Shown in pieces: positions 4,252-17,612 of a DNA stretch of 64,000 nt; the stretch's first letter is position 1, and every line of letters begins with the position of its first letter. The stretch lies in NCBI GenBank assembly GCA_964636985.1, contig CAZWSX010000003.1:361627-425626 (forward strand), read 5' to 3'. The position numbers were made by a program, and so were the translations under genes. The stretch is from an uncultured Pirellulaceae bacterium. GTDB lineage: Bacteria > Planctomycetota > Planctomycetia > Pirellulales > Pirellulaceae. The notes beneath the pieces are model-generated. The model did not search any database. It worked only from the letters and a program-made list of their open reading frames with translations, and was not told where the DNA came from.

Positions 4252-5739
4252 ATGAGCACGACACCCTTTGGCACAAGCGGCTCGGCCGCCGCTGGCGTTG
4301 AGTTTCCTTGTTCGGGCTGCAGCCGAATGTTGAAAGTCCCCGCCACCGCGGTGGGCAAACAGGCCAAGTGCCCCCAATGCGGCGTGGTCCAAACCATCCC
4401 CGGTCAGTCCAGTGTCGCGCAAACCATTCCCGGGCTGGCGACGATGCAAGGCCCCGCCCCGCAGACGCCTCCCTCGTTCGGCCATGCGCCCAACTTTGGC
4501 CAGCCTGCTGCTCCTCAGTCGAACTTCGTCCCTCAGTCCAACTATGGTTCGCAGCCAGGTTACGGATCGCAGCCGGGCTTTGGGCAGCAACCTGCTTACG
4601 GTCAACAATCGGCTCATCCCCCGGCGCCGCCGCGGCCGATCCCGCAAATGTCCTTTCAGCCGCCAGCCGCCGCACCACCGGCACCTGGTCCCATGCACCT
4701 GACTCCGGCACCCGCCCAACAGCCACAGCCGTCCGCGGCGCCGATGGGGCACGGGCAAAGTGGTTTCGCCGCCACGCCGGCCCGCGAAACACCAACGAAA
4801 CTTTTGTTCGACAAGATCGCCAGCGAGATCGCCAAGATCTATGTCGGGCAAGACGAACTCGTTCTCGGCTCACTGGTGGCTTTGTTTTCCAACGGCCACG
4901 TCTTGATCGAAAGCGTCCCAGGGTTAGGCAAGACTCTCTTCGTCCGCACGCTCGGCCGCGTGCTCGGTTTGCCCTTCGGCCGCATCCAGTTCACGGCCGA
5001 CTTGATGCCCAGCGATATCACGGGCGCACCGATCTTCGATATGAAGACGCAGGAGTTCCGCTTCCGGCCGGGCCCCGTTTTCACGCAGCTTCTGCTGGCG
5101 GACGAAATCAATCGCTCGCCGGCCAAAACCCACGCGGCTCTTTTGGAAACCATGCAGGAATACCGCGTCACCATCGACGGCAAGAGCCATCCGCTGGAAC
5201 GCCCGTTCTTGGTCTTGGCAACGCAAAACCCCATCGAGTCGGAAGGGACCTACAACCTTCCTGAAGCGCAGCTCGACCGTTTCATGTTCAAGCTCGTCGC
5301 CAACTACCCCAAGGAAAACGAGGAACAAGACATCCTCAAAATGCACAGCCGTCAGGAGGACGTCAATTTGCAGCTGAACGACAAGCTCGAGCAGGTCACC
5401 AACTGCCAAGAGATCCAAAAGATCATCCAGGAAAATGCCCAGGTCCATATCGACGACCGGCTAGTCGACTACATCACCAAGATCGTCCGGCTCACGCGCC
5501 AGTGGCGCGAACTCCACATGGGGGCGTCGCCTCGTGCCGGGATCGCGCTCATGCAGGCCGCCCGCACGCTGGCCGCCTTTAGCGGCCGCGACTATGCCGT
5601 GCCCGACGACGTGGTCCAACTTTCGCTTCCGATTCTGCGCCATCGCGTGGTGCTCACTGCGGAGGCCGAAGTGGAAGGAAAGAAAGTCGACGACGTCCTG
5701 GTTGAAATGATCCGTTCCGTGGAGGTCCCACGCTTTTGA
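4252..5739 (+). CDS. MoxR-family AAA+ ATPase with N-terminal CxxC...CxxC zinc ribbon and a P/Q/G/Y-rich low-complexity linker
   Basis: The N-terminus has CSGCSRMLKV...CPQCG. A ~170-aa linker follows with repeats such as SQPGYGSQPGFGQQPAYGQQ. The ATPase core has Walker A (VPGLGKT), Walker B (LLADEIN) and an LVLATQNP sensor region. Confidence 0.85.
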   Translation: MSTTPFGTSGSAAAGVEFPCSGCSRMLKVPATAVGKQAKCPQCGVVQTIPGQSSVAQTIPGLATMQGPAPQTPPSFGHAPNFGQPAAPQSNFVPQSNYGSQPGYGSQPGFGQQPAYGQQSAHPPAPPRPIPQMSFQPPAAAPPAPGPMHLTPAPAQQPQPSAAPMGHGQSGFAATPARETPTKLLFDKIASEIAKIYVGQDELVLGSLVALFSNGHVLIESVPGLGKTLFVRTLGRVLGLPFGRIQFTADLMPSDITGAPIFDMKTQEFRFRPGPVFTQLLLADEINRSPAKTHAALLETMQEYRVTIDGKSHPLERPFLVLATQNPIESEGTYNLPEAQLDRFMFKLVANYPKENEEQDILKMHSRQEDVNLQLNDKLEQVTNCQEIQKIIQENAQVHIDDRLVDYITKIVRLTRQWRELHMGASPRAGIALMQAARTLAAFSGRDYAVPDDVVQLSLPILRHRVVLTAEAEVEGKKVDDVLVEMIRSVEVPRF

Positions 5740-7160
5740 ACGACTTCTTCGAGCGACTGTACAAGCTCGGTCCCTTGCTGACCGAATACCCGATCATCAC
5801 GTTGATCGCGTTCGCGTCTCCGTTTGTCGTCCTGGCGGCGGTCAAGCGGATTCGTCCCAGCAACCTGCTTTTGCTGGGCATGCTGGCCGCCAGCTTGTTC
5901 AATTTCTCGATCCTGATTTCCAACGACGCCCTGCCGTTCATCTTGGTGGTCGACGTCGTCCTCGGCATCCTGGCCGCGATCGACGCCTTTACGCTTCCCA
6001 GCCGCAAGGCGCTCGCCTGCCAGCGACAGGCGTTGCGAGTGGTCTCGCTGCAAAAGCCGCATCGCGTCACGCTGCAAATCGTCAACCAATCGAATCGTCC
6101 CATCCGCTTGCGCATCCGCGACGACGCGCCGCAGGGGTTCGCGGCCACGCCCGACGAGTTCGCCCGCGTCCTGGCACCTCGCAGCCGCACGTCGCTGCAA
6201 TACGATTTCTCAGCCTCGCGGCGCGGCGCGTTCGAAATGAACCGCGTCTACGTCGAATGCCAAAGCCGCTGGCGATTGTGGACGCGGTTGATGGAATACC
6301 CCGTCAACAGCGTCTTCCACGTCTATCCCGATATGCGGCAATTGGCCCAGTACGCCGTGATGGCGCGGACCAATCGCCTGAGCCTGCTCGGCGTCCGCCG
6401 CACGCGCCGGATCGGAACCGATAACGATTTCGAACGGCTCCGCGACTACACCTTCGACGACAACTACAAGCACCTCGACTGGCGCAGCACCGCTCGCCGC
6501 AACAAGCTGACCGTCAAGGATTTTCAAACCAGCCAAAGCCAGCGGTTGATCTTCATGATCGACTGCGGCCGCATGATGACCAACGAGTCGGGCGGCATCA
6601 GCTTGCTCGACCACGCGCTCAACGCAATGCTGATGCTCGCATGGGTGGCGCTCAAGCAAGGGGACTCCGTCGGGCTGATGCTCTTCTCCGATCGGATCCT
6701 GGCCTACGTTCCGCCCAGCAGTGGCATGGGGCACATGAACCAACTGCTGCACGCTTCATTCGACAAGTTTCCCGAAGTCGTCGAATCTCGCTACGACCTG
6801 GCGTTCTTGCACCTGAACCGCTACTGCCGCAAGCGCTCGCTGGTGGTCTTGGCCACCAACGTGATCGACGAGGTCAACGCACACCAGATCCACAGTTACC
6901 TGCTCAACCTGGTCGGCAAACACTTGCCGATGGCCGTGCTGATGCGAGACCACTCGCTTTTCGACATCGCCGACGGTCCGACTAACACCGCCGAAGCTCT
7001 CTACCGCGCCGGCGCTGCCGCCGAAATCTTGAACTGGCGGCACCAGGTTCTCACCGACCTGGAACACGCGGGCGTCCTGATGCTCGACACCTTCCCCGAA
7101 GACATGACCGCGCCGCTGATCAATCAGTACCTGGCCGTTAAAGCGCGGAACATGCTGTAG
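5736..7160 (+). CDS. DUF58 (vWA-like) domain protein, the usual MoxR partner
   Basis: Putative TTG start overlapping the MoxR stop (TTGA). Two N-terminal TM helices. DUF58 signature region FERLRDYTFDDNYKHLDWRSTARRNKLTVKDFQ...LIFMIDCGRMM. Confidence 0.8.
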   Translation: MNDFFERLYKLGPLLTEYPIITLIAFASPFVVLAAVKRIRPSNLLLLGMLAASLFNFSILISNDALPFILVVDVVLGILAAIDAFTLPSRKALACQRQALRVVSLQKPHRVTLQIVNQSNRPIRLRIRDDAPQGFAATPDEFARVLAPRSRTSLQYDFSASRRGAFEMNRVYVECQSRWRLWTRLMEYPVNSVFHVYPDMRQLAQYAVMARTNRLSLLGVRRTRRIGTDNDFERLRDYTFDDNYKHLDWRSTARRNKLTVKDFQTSQSQRLIFMIDCGRMMTNESGGISLLDHALNAMLMLAWVALKQGDSVGLMLFSDRILAYVPPSSGMGHMNQLLHASFDKFPEVVESRYDLAFLHLNRYCRKRSLVVLATNVIDEVNAHQIHSYLLNLVGKHLPMAVLMRDHSLFDIADGPTNTAEALYRAGAAAEILNWRHQVLTDLEHAGVLMLDTFPEDMTAPLINQYLAVKARNML

Positions 7161-7170
7161 ACCGTGCGCA

Positions 7171-8142
7171 GTGCAGACGCGAGGGCGCGAGGCGGTGGCG
7201 AAGTATCAAGAAGATATGCCGCTCGGAGAACTCGCCGAGGAAGTGTCGCGGCACCTTCGAAAGCCGTGCCATCTCCGCAAAATCAGCGGCTATCTCAACC
7301 GCACCGAAGTCTTCACGGTGAATGCCGATGAAGCGGTCGTAAAAGCGTACCACCACGCCGCGGATTCCAAATTCGCTCGCGAAGTCTCGGCGTACCGCGC
7401 TCTCGAAGGAACTCCTCTTCCGGTCGCAACGCTCTTAACAGCGAACAAGCTCAAGGATGGCACGCCATGGATTTGTCTGAGCTACCTGCACGGCGATCCC
7501 GCCGACCACATGCTGCCGAAGCTCACGCTGGACCACGATGCTCAACTGTTGAGAGGCATCGGGGCCGTCACGCAACAGTTGCACGAAATCCGCTTCGACC
7601 CCGCGCAAACGCTCGACGAGAGAGTCCGCCCCACAAACACGATGGAAAGCCAGATCGTGGAACGCTATCGACGTTTCCGTGACGTTGTCCTGGAACGGAA
7701 CGACCCTTGCCGCGACGTTCAGTCGGCGGCATCAACGTCATTCGAATCGGCAGTTGCGGCGACATCTTTTATCACCGGCCAGATCCAGCCGTGTCTTGTT
7801 CACGGCGATTTGTCGACCAGGAACTTCCTCGCCTTATGTTCGTCAGATATCCAGATTTCCGGAATGCTCGATTTCGAACGCAGCACATTCGGCGACCCAG
7901 CCCAGGACCTGGCGATGATTTGGATCAAGGACCTGCAAGGCAGGCCGCCGCGCGAAACGGCCTTTCAGCAAGGCTACGGGCAACTCTCCGTGGACATCCG
8001 CCAGCGCGTGCGAGTCCACGCGATCGGGCAGCTATTCGAAATTGCGAGTTGGTCCTGGGAAATGGATCGTCCGTTTTTCGAGTTTGCGATGGCAACACTC
8101 CCGCGGTTGATCTCAAGCGATCGCGAACTTTTTTCGGCATAG
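7171..8142 (+). CDS. phosphotransferase-family protein (aminoglycoside/choline-kinase-like fold)
   Basis: Brenner-like catalytic motif LVHGDLSTRNFL and a downstream MLDFERSTFGDPAQDLA (DxD) motif typical of APH-family kinases. Confidence 0.6.
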   Translation: MQTRGREAVAKYQEDMPLGELAEEVSRHLRKPCHLRKISGYLNRTEVFTVNADEAVVKAYHHAADSKFAREVSAYRALEGTPLPVATLLTANKLKDGTPWICLSYLHGDPADHMLPKLTLDHDAQLLRGIGAVTQQLHEIRFDPAQTLDERVRPTNTMESQIVERYRRFRDVVLERNDPCRDVQSAASTSFESAVAATSFITGQIQPCLVHGDLSTRNFLALCSSDIQISGMLDFERSTFGDPAQDLAMIWIKDLQGRPPRETAFQQGYGQLSVDIRQRVRVHAIGQLFEIASWSWEMDRPFFEFAMATLPRLISSDRELFSA

Positions 8143-8173
8143 CCGCAGTATCGCAAGCCAATTCCGTGAACCA

Positions 8174-8956
8174 TTACCAAGCAGGCGCCTCGCCGCCGTT
8201 GGGAGTGACGATCGTCCAAAAGACTTGCACGTCAATTTGCGGACTAATCACGCGTACCGAGCTATCGTGCATCGCCGCCAGCAACCCGCCCCGCTGCAGC
8301 GCCTGCGGAATGGTGGAGTCGCACTCCGTTTCTTTCGGCATGACCTGGAACTTCTTGTTGCGAACCGATGGATACGTGACCCGGTTGTCGGTGATGGGGA
8401 CGACGTCGTTCCATCTGGCGCCCGCGAACGTGTTGGGCCGCGGCTGATCGGCAGGCGGTGCCACCCGCTCCATATCGTCGTCCACGTCCTGTAGCTGACT
8501 CAACGTAACCATCGTGCCGTCGACCATGAAGATAAACCGGCCGCACACCGAGTAGTGCTCGGTGTACAACAACGTATTGCTCTTGCCATCTTCAATGTCG
8601 GGCCGCCGCGCATTTCGCAGCCGATTGCGATACTCCAAAAAATCGTTTTCGCAGTAGCTAACCGCGTTAGGCCAGGCCACCGACGACGTAGGATCGTTGG
8701 GACTACGCAGGACTGTGGGATTGCCTTCGCGCGCCTCTCTTCGCCATTGCGCCAAGTGATTTGTGTTTGATTCCGATGCCATGTCGTCGGCCAGCGCTAG
8801 CTGGCGGAGGTTGCTTTTACTCAGCGTCGTCCTGGCGGCAGCCCGCGCCGATTGGACACCAGTTAGCGTCAGCGCAACCAACACGCCGATGATGGCCATA
8901 ACTACCAGAAGCTCAACGAGTGAAAGGCCCGCACGAACGCGAGAAGACGAGATCAT
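8174..8956 (-). CDS. DUF1559 protein with prepilin-type N-terminal cleavage/methylation domain
   Basis: GLSLVELLVVMAIIGVLVALTLTGVQSARAAAR matches a type IV pilin-like N-terminus, and the C-terminal AMHDSSVRVIS resembles the DUF1559 H-x-DG tail. The internal ATG at 8956 is preferred over the ORF-track start at 9139, which overlaps the neighbouring gene. Confidence 0.7.
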   Translation of the reverse strand: MISSSRVRAGLSLVELLVVMAIIGVLVALTLTGVQSARAAARTTLSKSNLRQLALADDMASESNTNHLAQWRREAREGNPTVLRSPNDPTSSVAWPNAVSYCENDFLEYRNRLRNARRPDIEDGKSNTLLYTEHYSVCGRFIFMVDGTMVTLSQLQDVDDDMERVAPPADQPRPNTFAGARWNDVVPITDNRVTYPSVRNKKFQVMPKETECDSTIPQALQRGGLLAAMHDSSVRVISPQIDVQVFWTIVTPNGGEAPAW

Positions 8957-9053
8957 AGAAATTTGCCCGAGGGAACCGTGGAAGAGGAGAGAACGGCCTC
9001 GAATCGACAAGCGCAATCGTATGCTATTCCAAGCCACAAGCAATAGTTTTTTG

Positions 9054-9935
9054 CTATTGGCTTGCTTGATTGGGCGCGGAAAGCAAATAGACGTCGAACT
9101 GCCCGTCCCGCTCGCAAATCGCAGCCAGGCTCTTTCCATCAGGATGCCAGGCCGGGTAATCGTCGCGTTCAGGGTTCTCCGTCCATCGCTGAACGTTTTT
9201 CCCGTCGCGGTCCATCACATAAATTTCCGCGTTGCCATCGCGATGGCTGACAAAAGCGATCCGTTTCCCGTCGGGCGAGAACCGTGGACGAATATCCTGC
9301 AGCGGCGAATCGGTCAGCCGCGTCGCGAGGCCGCCTTCAGCCGGCATCACGTAGATTTCGAAATTGCCGTCGCGGGTCGAGCTGAAAACAAGCTCTGTGC
9401 CGTCAGGCGAGAAGTCGGGCCAGTTGTTGAAGCTGCTGGCGTCGGCCAGCTCCTTGCGGTCGCGCCCATCAGCGCCGATCGAGATCAATCGCTGCCCGCC
9501 GCCATCGGGAAAGTTAAACGCGATCCGCTTGCCGTCGCTCGAAATCGCCGGGCTACGAAGCCCCGAAAATCCGGCCGCCGGCGGAATCTCCACTTCCTCG
9601 TCGCGCTCGGAATTGCGAACGCCGATGGCCACGCTCAAGGGACCTTTGAGTCGCAAGAAAACATAGTGCGGACTGTTGCGCGCCCAATGCGGTTCGAACT
9701 CGCTGGTCGATGCCTTCGGATGCAGCGGCTCGGCTTTCTTCGTCTCCAGATCAAGCCGCATCAATCGCAACAGCGTCGGCTTCTCGAGTTCCGCATACAG
9801 AATCGATTTCTGCTTCCAATCGAACGTAGGGCTGAACTTGAGCCGCCCATCCTCGGTAAGGCGAATCGGCTCGGCGGACGACGCTACGCTCGCCAAAGCA
9901 AGAGTAACCAGGACCAATAGTCCTATCCGCGCCAT
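9054..9935 (-). CDS. TolB-like periplasmic beta-propeller protein (PD40/WD40-like repeats)
   Basis: N-terminal signal peptide (MARIGLLVLVTLALASVASSA). Repeated F/SPDGKRIAF....DG..EIYVM units are typical of TolB-type propeller blades. Confidence 0.7.
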   Translation of the reverse strand: MARIGLLVLVTLALASVASSAEPIRLTEDGRLKFSPTFDWKQKSILYAELEKPTLLRLMRLDLETKKAEPLHPKASTSEFEPHWARNSPHYVFLRLKGPLSVAIGVRNSERDEEVEIPPAAGFSGLRSPAISSDGKRIAFNFPDGGGQRLISIGADGRDRKELADASSFNNWPDFSPDGTELVFSSTRDGNFEIYVMPAEGGLATRLTDSPLQDIRPRFSPDGKRIAFVSHRDGNAEIYVMDRDGKNVQRWTENPERDDYPAWHPDGKSLAAICERDGQFDVYLLSAPNQASQ

Positions 9936-9947
9936 AAGGCCTCCCGC

Positions 9948-11309
9948 TCAAACCAGCCCAGGAATAACGCGACCATTCGCTAGCACGCGCATCTCCGCGC
10001 GGGCTTCGGAATTGACGCCTGCCAGCTCGGCAATCGTCGTACCAACGTGCAGCGGCGAATAGGGCTCGGTCTTGGGGTATTCCCCGCGAGCATCGCTCTC
10101 GCCGATCACGCGCCCGGGTTCGACTCCCGCGCCCGACCAGAGCGAGAAGTAGCAAGGCGGCCAGTGGTCCCGCGCCGCCCGTGCGCTAATGCGGGGCGTT
10201 CGTCCGAATTCCCCCATGCACACCACCAAGGTCTGATCGATCAACCCGCGGTCGTACAAGTCGTCCAATAGCGCCGAGTAAACGCGATCGAGAATCGGGC
10301 AGTGCCAGTCTTGCAACAACTCGAAGTTGTAGATGTGCGTATCCCAACCGAACTCGAAGCCGGGATTGATCGCCTCGACGTGCCGACTGTAGTTCAGTTG
10401 GATATAAGGAACACCTGCCTCGGCTAAGCGCCGCGCAAGCAGCGCGCTTTGCCCAAAAACGGTCCAGCCATAGCGATCACGGGTCTTCTTGGATTCTTGC
10501 GTCAGATCGAAAGCAGCCTTCGCCGGGCCATTGGTCAACAAATCGAAAGCCCGGCTCGTCGCACGATTCCATGGCCCGCCAAGATCGTGTGCCGCAGCCA
10601 CCCGATCGAGCCGCTGCGACAGCTGCCGCCGATCGACTATCCGCGCGGGGTTGATATCGTCGAGCCACTGCAAGCCCGGCAGATTGATTTCCCCTTGCTG
10701 GTCGCAACCAATCAAAAACGGATCGTGTGCTCGGCCCAGCGTCCCGCCGCCAAAGCCTTCGATGCGGCGAGCACCGTCCATCACAACGCCGCTCGCGATC
10801 GAAAAGAACGGCGGCAAAACGTCGTCATGCCCGCGATGCTTGGCGATGATCGAGCCAAAGTTCGGCTGCACCGGCTGCGGCAGCTCCTCGAAGCCCGTGA
10901 GCGCCACCGTTCCCGCATCAGGGTGTCCCGGCGCCGTCGTCGCGTGCGACCTTACCAGCGTGAAGCGATCGCTCCGTTTAGCCATCTGCGGCAAGAGTTC
11001 GGTGAAGTGCACGCCCGGCGTTCGTGTGGGAATCACGCCAAACGGTCCACGAAACTCCGCCGGCGCGTTGGGCTTGGGGTCGCACGTATCGAGATGACTG
11101 GGAGCGCCCCACAAGAAGACAAAGATCACCGACTTCGCCCGTGCGCGCTTCGCGCTCTCCGCAGCAAGAGCCGAGGCGCCCATCCCCGAGATACCACTCA
11201 AGCTGGCGCCCAACGGGAGTGCCGTTGCCAGCCGCAACATCGAACGACGCGAGACGCCGCCGCAGGTGCGGGCGTCAAAGGCGCCGATATCGATGATGCG
11301 ATCGTCCAC
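9948..11309 (-). CDS. DUF1501 family protein (sulfatase-like, Tat-type signal)
   Basis: RRSMLRLATALPLGASL twin-arginine-like leader, then SVIFVFLWGAPSHLDTCDPKP, the characteristic DUF1501 N-terminal block. Confidence 0.8.
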   Translation of the reverse strand: MDDRIIDIGAFDARTCGGVSRRSMLRLATALPLGASLSGISGMGASALAAESAKRARAKSVIFVFLWGAPSHLDTCDPKPNAPAEFRGPFGVIPTRTPGVHFTELLPQMAKRSDRFTLVRSHATTAPGHPDAGTVALTGFEELPQPVQPNFGSIIAKHRGHDDVLPPFFSIASGVVMDGARRIEGFGGGTLGRAHDPFLIGCDQQGEINLPGLQWLDDINPARIVDRRQLSQRLDRVAAAHDLGGPWNRATSRAFDLLTNGPAKAAFDLTQESKKTRDRYGWTVFGQSALLARRLAEAGVPYIQLNYSRHVEAINPGFEFGWDTHIYNFELLQDWHCPILDRVYSALLDDLYDRGLIDQTLVVCMGEFGRTPRISARAARDHWPPCYFSLWSGAGVEPGRVIGESDARGEYPKTEPYSPLHVGTTIAELAGVNSEARAEMRVLANGRVIPGLV

Positions 11310-11520
11310 CTTCGGGCTCCGAAACGATCCTGGTCACAAGAGAATACCAAGGCGACTAACAAACTCGTAATCGTTCGATCGAAAAGTAATTCGCGCCGGC
11401 TTTACATCGGGTCGCGAATCTCAGTTGCTTAACTACTTCACCTTCTAGCATACGCTCCCGAACAACTGCGACGCGACCAGGTAAGTCACAGCAAACGTGC
11501 CTTCGCGTCGTTGAACTCCC

Positions 11521-11688
11521 CTATGACATCTTATCGTCTTGGCCTGGCCACCATGCTCCTCGTTTCGGGGGCCTGCGGGCTTGTTTTTCAAACCACTTGG
11601 TTGCGCGCAACGCCGCGAAACATACCGCGCAACAAACGACCCGCTCGCGGCGCAGGCGGAACGCGATCTGAGAAGCTTCCGCGCTAAC
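11521..11688 (+). pseudogene. orphan 5' fragment, a ~90-nt divergent duplicate of the start of the downstream MFS/spermidine-synthase gene, running into unrelated sequence and a stop
   Basis: ATGACATCTTATCGTCTTGGCCTGGCC...GTTTTTCAAACCACTTGGTTGCGC aligns with ATGACTTCTTATCGCCTCAAACTAGCC...GTCTTTCAAACCACTTGGCTGCGT at 11903. Most differences fall in third codon positions. Confidence 0.4.
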
Positions 11689-11902
11689 GCTCGGTAGCAA
11701 AGTTTTCGCAAAAAACCACCGCGGCCGCAACGAATCGTCAAGCTGCCGCTATCTAAGACCTGCGCTCGGTATAAAGTAGCTGAGACGAGGTGAGCGAACC
11801 CGTTCACCAGGCTTTCCGACGCTGAGAACCGCGACGCAACTGGGCACGTACCAGCCAAAGTGCTTTCGCACCCTTTGGCTTTTCGCCCAGTGGACCCTCG
11901 AC

Positions 11903-14900
11903 ATGACTTCTTATCGCCTCAAACTAGCCCTGATGCTGCTCGTTTCGGGAGCATGCGGGCTCGTCTTTCAAACCACTTGGCTGCGTGAATTCCGCCTGAT
12001 CTTTGGTGGATCGACCCCCGCCACAGCCGCCGTGCTCGCCGTTTTTATGGGCGGGCTGGGAATTGGCAACGCTCTCTTCGGCAGCTTCGCCGAACGATCT
12101 AAAAACCCGCTTCGGCTCTACGGCTTGCTCGAAGGTGGAATTGCCCTCAGCGCCATGCTCAGCCCATTTGCTCTCAAGCTGGCGATGTCGATCTACACGC
12201 AACTAGGCGGACAGTCGGCCCTGGGGCCTCTCGGCGCCACGCTGGTGCGGCTTGGGCTCGCCACCGTGGTGATGGGCATTCCCACCATCCTGATGGGTGG
12301 AACTTTGCCCGCCGTCGCAAAAGCGGTCACCACTCATTCCGATGTCCAACGCCGATGGCTGGCCGCCTTCTACGGACTGAACACACTCGGCGCCGTCCTG
12401 GGCACTCTGTTGGCAACCTTTGTGCTGCTGGAAAGCCTCGGCCACACGGCAACGCTATTCGCTGCATGCGCTGCCAACTTGCTTTTGGCCGTGACCGCGT
12501 GGTTCATCTCGTCGAAGCCCGCGCCCGTCGAAGCCCTGCCAAAGAAAACCAAGCGCGAGCGAAAAAAAGAACACGACGTCAACCACATCGACGCGGAACG
12601 GCCCGCAAAGCCGACGGAAGAACTCGCGTTGCCGATGTGGAGCATCTATCTGACGGCCGCCCTTTGTGGATGCATCTTCTTCCTGATGGAGTTGATCTGG
12701 GACCGCATGTTGACGCCGCTCCTGGGCGGATCGACGTTCACCTTCGCCGTGATTCTGGCGACGGTCCTGTTGGGTATAGGGATCGGCGGTTTGCTTTACC
12801 CGGTGATCGCTCGAAGGTTTGGCGTTACCCCCGCGCTCTTGGCAATCATGTGCGCGGCACAGGCGCTGACGATTGCGATTCCCTTAGCCTTAGGTGATCA
12901 AGTGGCTGTCTTCACAGCTTGGGTCCGCTCTCACCACGTCTCGAATTTCGCCACCCTCGTCCGCAGCTGGTTCATGATCACGACGATTGTTGTCTTCCCC
13001 ACATCGTTGATCGCGGGCATGCAGTTCCCCATTCTCGCCGCTTTGCTCGGCCGCGGCGATACCAATGTCAGTCGGCAGTACGGTTGGCTCGTCTTCTGGA
13101 ACACGTGCGGCTCGATCCTCGGTGCGCTGGCCGGAGGCTTCGGGCTGATTCCATTGCTCACCGCCACGGGCGCGTGGCGTATCTCGGCAGCCGTACTGGC
13201 CGTGCTGGCCATCGTGTGGGCGATCGTCGCGATTTGCGCCACCACCAAGCGAATCGGCGCCGCGGCGGCATTTGCCATTACTGCTGTTGCCGTGGTCTGT
13301 CTCTTCGCCATGGGTCCCACACCCTTCTGGCGGCACAGCGGCATCGGGGCGGGACGCGTCCGGCTCGCCAAATGGGGAGCGAACGACGTCAAGAATACAC
13401 TCCTGCAATATCGTTCCACGACCATCTGGGAGGCGGATGGCGTCGAGTCGTCCGTAGCCATCCAATTGACCGATGGCCTCTCGCTCTTGGTAAACGGCAA
13501 GTCGGACGGCAGCGCCATCACCGATCGCGATACGCAAATCATGCTCGGCCTCCTGGCGCCGCTTCTCCGCGAAAAACTCAGCGACGCCCTCGTCGTCGGA
13601 CTCGGAACAGGCGAAACGGCCGGTTGGCTCGCCGAGTGTCCCGATACCAAGCGCGTCGACGTTATCGAACTCGAGCCCGCTGTCGGCGAAATGGGCCGCC
13701 GCTGCGGCGAGCTCAACTTCAACGTCATGAACCACCCCAAAGTCAATCTGATCTACAACGACGCGCGAGAAGTACTTCTTACCACGCCCAATCAATACGA
13801 CCTGGTCGTCTCCGAGCCCTCCAATCCCTACCGGGCAGGCGTGGCCAGCCTCTTCACCGACGAGTACTACGCCGCCGCGAAGAAGCGCCTTCGGCCGCGC
13901 GGTGTCTTTGTGCAATGGCTCCAAGGCTACGAAGTCGATGTGCTCACCGTGCAAACCGTCTTCGCAACGCTGCTGCGGCAGTTCAAACACGTTGAGGTGT
14001 GGAGCGGGATCGCCAACGATTTGATCCTGGTCTGCCGCGACGATGACGAGCCTTACGACTGGGAAAACATCGGCTCGCGGCTGGGCCAACATCCCTTTCA
14101 GCAAGGAGTGCGGGCGGCATGGAACATGTACGACATCGAGGGCGTCGCCGCGCACTACGTGGCCGGAGTCAAAACGGTGCGCGGCCAGGCCGAGATCGCC
14201 GGCTTCTTCAACAGCGACGATCAAAACTCTTTGGAATACGCATTCGCTCGCTCCGTGGCCTCCTGGCAAGGTCAATCGACCGTCCAGGACGCAACGCTCT
14301 TTAGCATGATCGACCTGCGGAAAAAGGCGCTGCAAGACTCCGACGGCGAGCCACCAGCAAAGGACCTTGCCCCCGATCCCGAACGGACACGCGAACGTCG
14401 TATCTCAATGCTCGCTCGGCATCATGAGTCGCTGTTTGTCGAGGGCGAAGATTCAGCCAGGGAAGCTCGCCGCCTGTCGCTTCAACAGGCCGGAGAACGC
14501 GAAATCGAGAAGTCGCTGTACATTTGGGGCACGCAGACCGACGATCCTCACGACGCCATCCAATGCTGCTTGATGGCGCCGATCTTTGGTTTGAAAGACC
14601 CACCCAGGATGAAAGCCACCATCGATCGCCTGGCGAAATGGTCGCCCAACGACACCGCCGTGTTGGAACCGTACTACTACTATGTGATTCAAGACTTCGC
14701 CACTTGCGATAACAAGGTTTTTGAGGCGTTCGATCGATTGCGCTCGGACCCGTGGATCGACCACCACGTCGTGTTTTTCTTTTTCCGAGCGGTTGTTGCG
14801 CGAGGCCACGACGACAAGGAATTCCGGCGAAAGGCCTACGAGGCGCTGAAACAACCGTTTCCTGGATTCGCGGCCGACTTGGAACGCCGTTCCACCCTGA

Positions 14901-15079
14901 TGGAACTTGCGGTAATGCTCGATCCAAAGACGGCCGCGGAGGCGTTCCGCGCGCACGAGCGCTACCTCGACTGGAGCGAACAGTACCTAAAACCCAGAGC
15001 AAACGCCTACCGCGCGGTCAACGATCCCATGACTGAACAAGCACTGCGCGACTTGGCCAACTTCCGCGCGAATAAGTAG
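11903..15079 (+). CDS. fused MFS-type transporter / spermidine-synthase-like (class I SAM-fold aminopropyltransferase) protein with a C-terminal TPR-like helical domain
   Basis: About 12 N-terminal TM helices. Spermidine-synthase-like core at VVGLGTGETAGWLAE...VDVIELEPAV...IYNDAREVL...YDLVVSEPSNPY...SLFTDEYY...GVFVQW. Helical tail of ~350 aa. Confidence 0.75.
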   Translation: MTSYRLKLALMLLVSGACGLVFQTTWLREFRLIFGGSTPATAAVLAVFMGGLGIGNALFGSFAERSKNPLRLYGLLEGGIALSAMLSPFALKLAMSIYTQLGGQSALGPLGATLVRLGLATVVMGIPTILMGGTLPAVAKAVTTHSDVQRRWLAAFYGLNTLGAVLGTLLATFVLLESLGHTATLFAACAANLLLAVTAWFISSKPAPVEALPKKTKRERKKEHDVNHIDAERPAKPTEELALPMWSIYLTAALCGCIFFLMELIWDRMLTPLLGGSTFTFAVILATVLLGIGIGGLLYPVIARRFGVTPALLAIMCAAQALTIAIPLALGDQVAVFTAWVRSHHVSNFATLVRSWFMITTIVVFPTSLIAGMQFPILAALLGRGDTNVSRQYGWLVFWNTCGSILGALAGGFGLIPLLTATGAWRISAAVLAVLAIVWAIVAICATTKRIGAAAAFAITAVAVVCLFAMGPTPFWRHSGIGAGRVRLAKWGANDVKNTLLQYRSTTIWEADGVESSVAIQLTDGLSLLVNGKSDGSAITDRDTQIMLGLLAPLLREKLSDALVVGLGTGETAGWLAECPDTKRVDVIELEPAVGEMGRRCGELNFNVMNHPKVNLIYNDAREVLLTTPNQYDLVVSEPSNPYRAGVASLFTDEYYAAAKKRLRPRGVFVQWLQGYEVDVLTVQTVFATLLRQFKHVEVWSGIANDLILVCRDDDEPYDWENIGSRLGQHPFQQGVRAAWNMYDIEGVAAHYVAGVKTVRGQAEIAGFFNSDDQNSLEYAFARSVASWQGQSTVQDATLFSMIDLRKKALQDSDGEPPAKDLAPDPERTRERRISMLARHHESLFVEGEDSAREARRLSLQQAGEREIEKSLYIWGTQTDDPHDAIQCCLMAPIFGLKDPPRMKATIDRLAKWSPNDTAVLEPYYYYVIQDFATCDNKVFEAFDRLRSDPWIDHHVVFFFFRAVVARGHDDKEFRRKAYEALKQPFPGFAADLERRSTLMELAVMLDPKTAAEAFRAHERYLDWSEQYLKPRANAYRAVNDPMTEQALRDLANFRANK

Positions 15080-15118
15080 CGCAATGAATTCTATTTACAT
15101 CCCACAACGAGTTTCACG

Positions 15119-16528
15119 ATGAATCGTTTTGCCGTTGCCTGCCTCTTTGCGGTTTCTGTCGTTCTTACCAGAAACGGCCTCGCCGACGACGTCTTGAAAG
15201 TCGGCGTCGCCAAAACCGACATCACGCCGCCTGTTGGCTGTCGAATGTGCGGGTACTTCAACGAGCGATTCAACACCGGGACCAAAGATCCCCTGCATGC
15301 CAAGGCCATCGCCTGGATTCAAGGCGAGACCAAGGTCGTCTTCGTCGCCTGCGATCTCATTGGACTCTCGGCCTCGATCACCGCCGATGCACGGAAGCAA
15401 ATCGAAGCTCGGACCAGCACGCCGGCCGATCACGTTATCGTCCATGGAACGCACTCGCACACCGGGCCGCTCTACGGCGGCGCGATGCGGAACTACTTCC
15501 ATCGTCTGGCCATCGAGCGCGACGGCAAGGACGCCGCCGAGCCCATCGATTACCCCAAGTTCCTCGCCGCGAAAATCGCCGAGGCCGCCGAAACAGCAAT
15601 CAACAATGTCCGCCCCGCCACGCTAGAAACGGGCATCGGCGAAGAGACGGAACTCTCGTTCAATCGCCGCTGGCATCTGACCGATGGAACCGTTCAATTC
15701 AATCCAGGCCGCGGCAATCCCAAACTAGTTCGCCCAGCGGGTCCAATCGATCCCGATCTCGGCATCGTGCTGGTCCGCGACGCCGAAACCAAACAGCCGA
15801 CCGCGAGCCTCACCTCCTTCGCACTCCACTTAGACACCGTCGGCGGAACGCTCTACGCAGCCGACTATCCCTACTACCTGGAAAAGGGGCTGCAAAGCAA
15901 GTTCGGCGAGAACTTCCTCAGCATCTTCGGCACCGGAACCTGCGGCGACATAAACCACGTCGACTTCCATCTCAAGGAGGCCCCCAAGCACGACAAGATC
16001 GAGTCTGACCGGATCGGCTCAGCCCTCGCTGAACGCGTGCTGGAAACCCTCCCGCGTCTGGAGCGGCAAACTCGCCCCATCCTGGCAGTGAAACGGACCG
16101 CGTTCGAGGCTCCCAAGCAGCAGTATCCACCCGAGCGCGTCGCAATCGCCAAACGCGACATGGCCAAAGTGGGAACCAACCAGGCCACGTTCCTGGAACA
16201 AGTCGAAACGGTCAAGATCGTCGAGTTAAGCGAACACGAGCCGGACACCGTTCAAATCGAAGTCCAGGCAATTCGCCTCACCAGCGACACAGCGATCATC
16301 GCCATTCCCGGTGAAGTCTTCGTGCAACTAGGCCTGGGGATCAAGCTCAACTCCCCTTTCAAAACGACGCTCGTGATCGAACTCTGCAACAACAGCCCGG
16401 CCTACATCCCGACCAAGCGAGCCTTCGTTGAAGGAAGCTACGAAACCATCAATAGCCGCACCGTCCCCGGCACCGGCGAGAAAATGGTCGCCGCAGCCAT
16501 CGACTTGCTGGAGTCGCTCAAGCCGTAG
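15119..16528 (+). CDS. neutral/alkaline ceramidase N-terminal-domain-like secreted hydrolase
   Basis: Signal peptide, then LKVGVAKTDITPPVGCRMCGY...VVFVACDLIGLS..., which resembles the conserved N-terminal block of non-lysosomal ceramidases. Confidence 0.55.
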   Translation: MNRFAVACLFAVSVVLTRNGLADDVLKVGVAKTDITPPVGCRMCGYFNERFNTGTKDPLHAKAIAWIQGETKVVFVACDLIGLSASITADARKQIEARTSTPADHVIVHGTHSHTGPLYGGAMRNYFHRLAIERDGKDAAEPIDYPKFLAAKIAEAAETAINNVRPATLETGIGEETELSFNRRWHLTDGTVQFNPGRGNPKLVRPAGPIDPDLGIVLVRDAETKQPTASLTSFALHLDTVGGTLYAADYPYYLEKGLQSKFGENFLSIFGTGTCGDINHVDFHLKEAPKHDKIESDRIGSALAERVLETLPRLERQTRPILAVKRTAFEAPKQQYPPERVAIAKRDMAKVGTNQATFLEQVETVKIVELSEHEPDTVQIEVQAIRLTSDTAIIAIPGEVFVQLGLGIKLNSPFKTTLVIELCNNSPAYIPTKRAFVEGSYETINSRTVPGTGEKMVAAAIDLLESLKP

Positions 16529-16621
16529 AATGGTGCATGCGAAGGTTGGTCGAGCGAAGTATAACGGTAGGTATTCTGAGTAAACGATTTTGTACGCTAG
16601 AACACCCAGGAGTTTTCGTCC

Positions 16622-17083
16622 GTGAGCGCAGACGCAAATTTGGCCGCACTAAATGTCACCTTGCCCCCGCCCCCCAAGCCCGCCGGCGTTTATAAGCCGG
16701 TGATCGTCGTCGGCAACCTTGCCTACGTCTCGGGGCACGGACCATTGATGCCCGACGGAAGTTTGATGACGGGCCGCGTCGGGGCCCAGGTCGATCAACA
16801 AGCCGGCTACAACGCCGCCAGGCAAACCGGCCTGGCCATCCTGGCCACGCTCAAGAACCACTTCGGCAGCCTCGACAAAATCAAGCGCGTCATCAAGACG
16901 CTCGGGATGGTCAATTGCACGCCCGAGTTCGCCAACCACCCGGCGGTGATCAACGGCTTTAGCGAACTCTGCGCCCAGATTTGGGGCCCCGACCACGGCG
17001 TGGGCGCACGCAGCGCTGTCGGCATGGGTTCGCTTCCCACGAACATCACGGTCGAAATCGAAGTCATCTTCGAATTGGCTTAA
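16622..17083 (+). CDS. RidA/YjgF/L-PSP family protein
   Basis: 153 aa with the typical AGVYKPVIVVGNLAYVSGHGP...RSAVGMGSLPTNITVEIEVIFEL fold signature. Confidence 0.8.
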   Translation: MSADANLAALNVTLPPPPKPAGVYKPVIVVGNLAYVSGHGPLMPDGSLMTGRVGAQVDQQAGYNAARQTGLAILATLKNHFGSLDKIKRVIKTLGMVNCTPEFANHPAVINGFSELCAQIWGPDHGVGARSAVGMGSLPTNITVEIEVIFELA

Positions 17084-17098
17084 AGCCGGAGAACTGAC

Positions 17099-17578
17099 GT
17101 GTCGGCGGCGGTTTCGGATACGGTAGTGGACATTGCACCCCGGCGTGCCAGCGGGATGGACTATCTATTCCACCTGGCCTTGTTCACCACCTGCTTTGTC
17201 GTCCTGTTTCTCGCGCTCGTATTCCGAGTGCGTGAACCCGACAAAATCATCGTCCCGATTTTCAACGAGCCGCTGCCGCCATCCTGCACGATGAAAACGC
17301 TAACGGGCTACGATTGCCCCGGCTGCGGGCTCACTCGATCATTTGTGAGCCTCGCCCACGGCAACATCGTCCGCGCGTTCACGTTCAACTTCGCCGGTCC
17401 GCTTCTCTTTTCGCTGATGGCCTTTCAGCTGGTCTACCGGCCCTGGCAACTGTGGCGAATCCGCAACGGCCAGCGCGAGTTCGACCTCACCACGCCAGGC
17501 GGACTGGCACTCGGCGCCATCGCGATCGTCCTAGTCCTGCAATGGGCAATCCGAGCCGGGCTATCGATGTCGGCGTAG
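17099..17578 (+). CDS. DUF2752-like small membrane protein with CPGCG motif
   Basis: GYDCPGCGLTRSFVSLAHGN motif between hydrophobic helices. Confidence 0.55.
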   Translation: MSAAVSDTVVDIAPRRASGMDYLFHLALFTTCFVVLFLALVFRVREPDKIIVPIFNEPLPPSCTMKTLTGYDCPGCGLTRSFVSLAHGNIVRAFTFNFAGPLLFSLMAFQLVYRPWQLWRIRNGQREFDLTTPGGLALGAIAIVLVLQWAIRAGLSMSA

Positions 17579-17592
17579 CAAGACACCCGTAG

Positions 17593-17612
17593 CCGCGTTC
17601 GCCAGAACGCGG
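17593..17612. repeat. GCCA-loop hairpin element, copy 1 (3' of the DUF2752 gene)
   Basis: CCGCGTTC-GCCA-GAACGCGG in the context CCGTAGC...GTGAAG. Confidence 0.6.

Follow-up and report, generated by a model that had tools for sequence, protein, structure and literature searches.

The partial copy of an MFS/spermidine-synthase gene at 11464-11697 of the window (the whole 64,000-nucleotide stretch of DNA analysed here) is very probably a non-functional pseudogene relic of an upstream tandem paralogue, which stems from an old duplication and was gutted by an internal deletion of about 3.02 kb. It consists of a head and a tail that are both homologous to the gene downstream of it, it lies in a syntenic position where relatives have an intact orthologue, and its junction is found again in a second strain. 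The parts of the locus, all on the plus strand, are as follows.

11464 to 11522, plus strand: 5' flank that survives from the lost upstream paralogue (presumably its 5' UTR or promoter-proximal sequence), duplicated along with the gene
11523 to 11606, plus strand: relic head, ATG and codons 1-28 of the upstream MFS/spermidine-synthase paralogue, which encode its first transmembrane helix
11523 to 11687, plus strand: frame open from the ATG, 54 codons and TAA (11685-11687), made of the head peptide and then an out-of-frame basic tail
11605 to 11616, plus strand: deletion junction, TTGCG[CG]CAACGCCG|CGAAAC
11611 to 11697, plus strand: relic tail, the last 28 codons with the original stop (TAG, 11695-11697), one base out of frame with the head
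11698 to 11902, plus strand: original spacer between the tandem paralogues, 205 nt (same length in L002, 13169-13373, at 96.1% identity)
11903 to 15079, plus strand: surviving paralogue downstream, still intact and coding for a fused MFS/spermidine synthase of 1058 aa (NF037959)

The ATG of the relic (11523) stands 380 nt upstream of the ATG of the neighbour gene (11903), on the same strand. As the original prediction had it, the fragment duplicates the first ~28 codons of that gene, with 26 of 28 residues identical (tblastn within the window, E=6.7e-10), although the predicted start at 11521 has to be moved to the ATG at 11523. The head peptide of the relic and the neighbour reads MTSYRL(G/K)LA(T/L)MLLVSGACGLVFQTTWLR. 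At the DNA level, the match to the neighbour gene begins at 11502, 21 nt before the ATG, and extends over 104 nt at 75% identity (blastn, E=2.4e-18), and a further 43 nt of the 5' flank (11464-11506) are homologous to 11827-11869 at 74% (blastn, within the window). We counted 17 differences over the 84 nt of the head, the number predicted. Eleven codons carry a single synonymous change, again as expected, but only 10 of these changes are at position 3, the other one being TTG/CTG, and two codons are replaced (G7K and T10L) where about three amino-acid changes had been announced. The predicted synonymous bias holds in a proper alignment of the 28 codons, with Sd 12.2, Nd 4.8, dS 0.94, dN 0.083 and omega 0.088 (Nei-Gojobori).

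The sequence that follows the head had been described as unrelated; it is in fact the 3' end of the same gene read out of frame. The tail translates as RRETYRATNDPLAAQAERDLRSFRANAR followed by the stop, and its positions 11611-11688 match residues 1032-1057 of the 1058-aa protein at 16 of 26 residues (61.5%, tblastn within the window, E=2.7e-4), the aligned C-terminus of the neighbour protein being ...RANAYRAVNDPMTEQALRDLANFRANK and stop. The frame opened by the ATG does end about where predicted, 54 codons and a TAA corresponding to the stop after 55 codons. Past the original stop of the relic, the spacer holds a GC-rich palindrome with GCGGCCGC (11716-11733), preceded on the plus strand by an A-run, that scores as terminator-like on the minus strand only and may mark where the terminator of the upstream copy used to be. 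Searching the 64-kb window with the 1058-aa protein (tblastn) revealed no family copies other than the gene and the relic, and the 23-nt head sequence had 0 matches in metagenome contigs.

The downstream protein was then compared with protein databases, which returned P0002 and P0004 (77% and 70% identical, both on one JGI contig) and P0003 (74%, on a Logan contig). Three syntenic loci carry two full-length tandem genes of the family, flanked by a minus-strand DUF1501 gene on one side and a ceramidase-like gene on the other.

L001, JGI 3300060284: upstream copy of 1068 aa, downstream copy of 1054 aa; a more distant relative
L002, SRR22388345: upstream copy of 1065 aa from the true ATG, downstream copy of 1058 aa
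L085, SRR29476908: upstream copy of 1069 aa, downstream copy of 1058 aa

Gene order at these loci is that of the window (DUF1559/PD40/DUF1501 on the minus strand, gene, gene, ceramidase-like), and the flanks of L002 and L085 are about 95-96% identical to those of the window. Window 5000-11607 corresponds to L002 3439-10055 at 96.2%, and window 11616-17603 to L002 13087-19074 at 95.2%. The sole break in this collinearity is the replacement of ~3.03 kb of L002 (10056-13086) by 8 nt. The region 5' of the intact L002 gene is collinear with 11310-11522 at 96.7% identity, the start of that gene (MTSYRLGLAIMLL...) is identical to the relic head at 83 of 85 nt (97.6%), and its 3' end is identical to the tail at 78 of 82 nt (95.1%). 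The last 26 residues of the tail translation are the C-terminus of P0003, the L002 upstream protein, which ends ...ETYRATNDPLAAQAERDLRSFRANAR. The upstream copy in the window thus lacks codons 29 to ~1036. From the ATG to the original stop there are 175 nt in the window and 3198 in L002, a net loss of 3023 nt; since this is no multiple of 3, the head and the tail are in different frames. The gene call for P0003 in L002 begins at an internal Met (MLLVSG..., region 9971-10000); the true ATG lies 30 nt upstream (MTSYRLGLAIMLLVSG...), which gives a protein of 1065 aa and not 1055 aa.

A protein tree groups the downstream copies from the window, L002 and L001 in one clade that excludes the upstream copies, and P0005, the nearest single-copy homologue, has an unrelated gene context. 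The tandem duplication is therefore old, the two-copy state ancestral and the state of the window a derived loss, a polarity also given by the two full-length genes of L001 as the outgroup. Over their full length, the upstream and downstream paralogues of L002 have a dS of 1.34 and an omega of 0.13, close to the 0.088 of the head. The synonymous-biased differences in the head exist because the upstream and downstream copies were long functional side by side under purifying selection, as the original prediction had proposed for both copies. Between L002 and L085, omega is 0.30 for the upstream copies (21 non-synonymous and 23 synonymous changes) and 0.10-0.15 for downstream copies at similar or greater divergence, a hint that constraint is relaxed on the copy missing from other strains.

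Taken together, these comparisons suggest an ancestor with two tandem, long-diverged paralogues of ~1060 aa each between the DUF1501 and ceramidase-like genes. In the lineage of the window, an illegitimate deletion of ~3.02 kb, with microhomology of at most 2-4 nt, would have removed codons 29 to ~1036 and left the upstream copy with 28 codons from its start joined to ~28 from its end, the net loss of 3023 nt producing the frameshift. The 5' flank, the start codon, the codons of the first transmembrane helix, the C-terminal codons with the original stop and the 205-nt spacer would have been left behind, and the downstream paralogue would have remained untouched under continuing purifying selection. 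A single deletion event is what we infer here from the sequence.

Left homology to L002 stops at 11607 and unambiguous right homology starts at 11616. The window junction reads ...TGGTTGCGCGCAACGCCGCGAAACATACCGCGC..., to be compared with ...TGGTTGCGCG|AGTTTCG... at the left and ...TATCTCGCAACCAGGGCCGAAACCTACCGCGC... at the right of the segment in L002; the junction-spanning sequence of the deletion allele is TTGCGCGCAACGCCGCGAAAC. Two readings of this junction are possible. The break may lie at CG/CAAC (CGCAAC), with a 2-nt microhomology and an in-frame deletion of 3021 nt (3 x 1007), a reading that needs a further 2-nt indel and three mismatches at 11610-11622. Alternatively, an ungapped alignment may be adopted, with a 4-nt CGCG microhomology and a single deletion of 3023 nt; this keeps the family-invariant Arg1032 codon and requires that the parental allele differed from L002 at 8 of 12 positions. 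Under both readings alike, the junction is one of illegitimate recombination with minimal homology and not of recombination between the paralogues. The uneven alignment to L002, which calls for either a 2-nt indel with three mismatches or a filler of 8 nt, leaves room for an event that was not a single simple deletion.

The same junction was found in two further assemblies. L003 (SRR12808457), an independent assembly, matches the window at 100% over 16.4 kb, and L084 (SRR12808456) is 94% identical over 14.7 kb and has the identical junction, including the odd CAACGCCG. Three sites beside the relic (11691, 11707 and 11717) set both deletion alleles apart from both intact ones, a pattern consistent with a single origin of the deletion.

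Two explanations that would dispense with a deletion in place have next to no chance of being right. The apparent deletion might be an assembly artefact in which tandem paralogues were mis-joined or collapsed, as short-read assemblers can be confused by such arrays and the window genome and L003 may come from the same reads. However, the junction unites the head and the tail of one and the same copy, the upstream one, at non-homologous positions, whereas a collapse would join equivalent positions, and the paralogues are only ~73% identical in DNA. The identical junction in L084, which comes from a different run and a different strain, excludes an artefact. The second explanation, favoured by the original prediction, is that the 5' segment came as a copy from a functional paralogue at another place in the genome, through ectopic recombination or duplicative insertion. 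The synonymous-biased divergence does show a functional source gene, and paralogues could exist outside the 64 kb of the genome that the comparison covered, yet L002, L085 and L001 all have an intact source gene in precisely this syntenic place. Moreover, both flanks are collinear and the fragment includes the gene's own 3' end, stop and downstream spacer, so that no insertion is required. The paralogue was thus not elsewhere; it sat here as the upstream tandem member, and the fragment is what its deletion left in place. The recombination scar suspected by the original prediction is real as the scar of this deletion, and synteny with L002, L085 and L001 refutes an imported copy.

Whether the relic does anything was addressed through its second allele and its surroundings. 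The relic could have been co-opted as an upstream small ORF, a leader or an extra promoter for the downstream paralogue, or as a small membrane peptide, although we regard this as very unlikely. In its favour are the intact and conserved 5' flank, ATG and head (2 of 84 nt differ between the window and L084, against ~5.8% overall), the distance of only 205 nt to the paralogue, which follows on the same strand, and the third-position bias of variants in the original frames described below, which could mean residual constraint. The head conservation, however, is statistically indistinguishable from background, the contrast between the head (2/84) and the tail (8/87) not being significant. In L084 the closing TAA of the 54-codon frame has become GAA and the original TAG has become GAG; because of the first change, the ORF from the ATG is 85 aa long there and 54 aa in the window, so ORF length is not kept. 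Within the open frame, six differences separate the tails of the window and L084, and 6/6 are at position 1 or 2, which argues against a conserved small ORF; the 26-aa tail shows five amino-acid changes. Gene callers placed no gene within the relic interval in either Logan assembly. Between 11250 and 12000 there was no Rfam match at E<=1 and no match to a sigma-70-like promoter. No plus-strand terminator-like site lies between the relic and the downstream gene, the sole plus-strand site (11569-11582) being inside the head. Finally, one copy of the duplicated 5' region belongs to the downstream gene itself. The regulatory small ORF of the original prediction is thus unsupported. As far as the two alleles allow us to judge, the deletion most likely opened the 54-codon frame by accident, as a by-product that has no function.

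The polymorphism of the relic has a coding-like appearance. Among four alleles (window, L084, L002 and L085), 9 of the 12 sites that vary within the relic were third codon positions in the frames before the deletion (binomial p=0.004). The relic differs by 5.7% between the window and L084, close to the ~5.9% estimated for constrained coding DNA from the rates of the downstream gene (dS 0.167, dN 0.023), so it does not look neutrally diverged. Such a third-position bias is not predicted for a long-neutral relic and needs either recombination with intact alleles or a young deletion. L002 and L085 are 100% identical over the equivalents of window 11310-11522 and 11698-11902 and 99.4% identical across the relic region between them; they are 99.8% identical over 13500-15079 and only 93.4% over 11903-13500. 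This mosaic identity among the four strains (window 5000-17603 compared with L002, L084 and L085) points to frequent homologous recombination in the population. The identity of the window and L084 falls to 87.8% over 7000-9000, in the region of a DUF1559-type gene. The simplest reading, on small numbers, is that most polymorphisms of the relic go back to intact alleles, from which recombination carried them to the deletion haplotype. An equivalent view, based on the same small numbers, is that a fairly young deletion may have spread by homologous recombination between strains ~5% apart. A bolder reading, which sets out from the identical junction in two strains about 5-6% diverged and from the coding-like polymorphism, appears unlikely to us: the deletion allele would be more than a decaying remnant, and either a young deletion would have spread by homologous recombination between diverged strains, loss of the upstream paralogue being advantageous, or the relic (head peptide or tail frame) would still be expressed and constrained as a small membrane peptide or leader acting on the surviving paralogue.

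The surviving gene scores 138 bits against NCBIfam NF037959 (cut-off 40). Of the Pfam models, Spermine_synth reaches 38 bits (cut-off 22.9), and MFS_1 stays at 28.7 bits, under its cut-off of 33.4. Its omega of 0.10-0.15 between strains (four strains) shows that it is under purifying selection. Its closest named homologues are in Pirellulaceae/Pirellulales MAGs, and these, along with the DUF1501, DUF1559 and PD40 neighbours, point to a planctomycete-like bacterium. A family-alignment scan of genome contigs found the family to be widespread in Planctomycetota, Myxococcota, Acidobacteriota and Verrucomicrobiota, the relatives among the matches listed being at <=50% identity. Tandem arrays were seen elsewhere, with three head-to-tail copies in a Thermoanaerobaculia MAG (L061, 4920-13894) and two copies in a Lacipirellulaceae MAG (L014, 1332-7619); tandem amplification of the MFS/spermidine-synthase gene is therefore recurrent. 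A literature search by family name yielded no papers on the fused MFS/spermidine synthase family, its biochemical role included. The locus documents a presence/absence polymorphism of one tandem MFS/spermidine-synthase paralogue among closely related, recombining planctomycete-like strains, which suggests that the tandem copies are at least partly redundant.

Compared with the NF037959 family, the head and the tail of the relic derive from a member, and both the downstream neighbour and the intact L002 orthologue (132 bits against the cut-off of 40) pass the family threshold. The relic itself, however, keeps ~56 of ~1065 codons with no domain left, and its 54-aa ORF matches no NCBIfam model, NF037959 included; it is derived from a member without being one. 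The relic resembles upstream ORFs and leader peptides in that it is a short ORF that has a start codon and precedes a same-strand gene by 205-380 nt. Unlike them, it differs in ORF length and tail sequence between its two strains, no associated RNA structure or family was found for it, and its origin as a deletion product is documented. Bacterial genomes reportedly have a deletional bias, and gene remnants in bacteria are said to arise via internal deletion. The relic is like such internal-deletion pseudogenes: it has a homologous functional gene and an intact syntenic orthologue in close relatives, most of its coding sequence is gone, its frame is broken, a redundant paralogue adjoins it, and its stop codons drift in the second strain (L084). 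It differs from a typical bacterial pseudogene in its unusually tidy head-plus-tail structure with start, original stop and spacer, which makes it resemble a small ORF, and in its coding-like allele polymorphism; otherwise there is no essential difference. Positions 11464-11697 should consequently be annotated as a pseudogene remnant and not as a small ORF. The relic is an ordinary gene-loss remnant, a kind of feature that is already known, and shows neatly how what a deletion leaves of a head and a tail can be mistaken for an upstream ORF.
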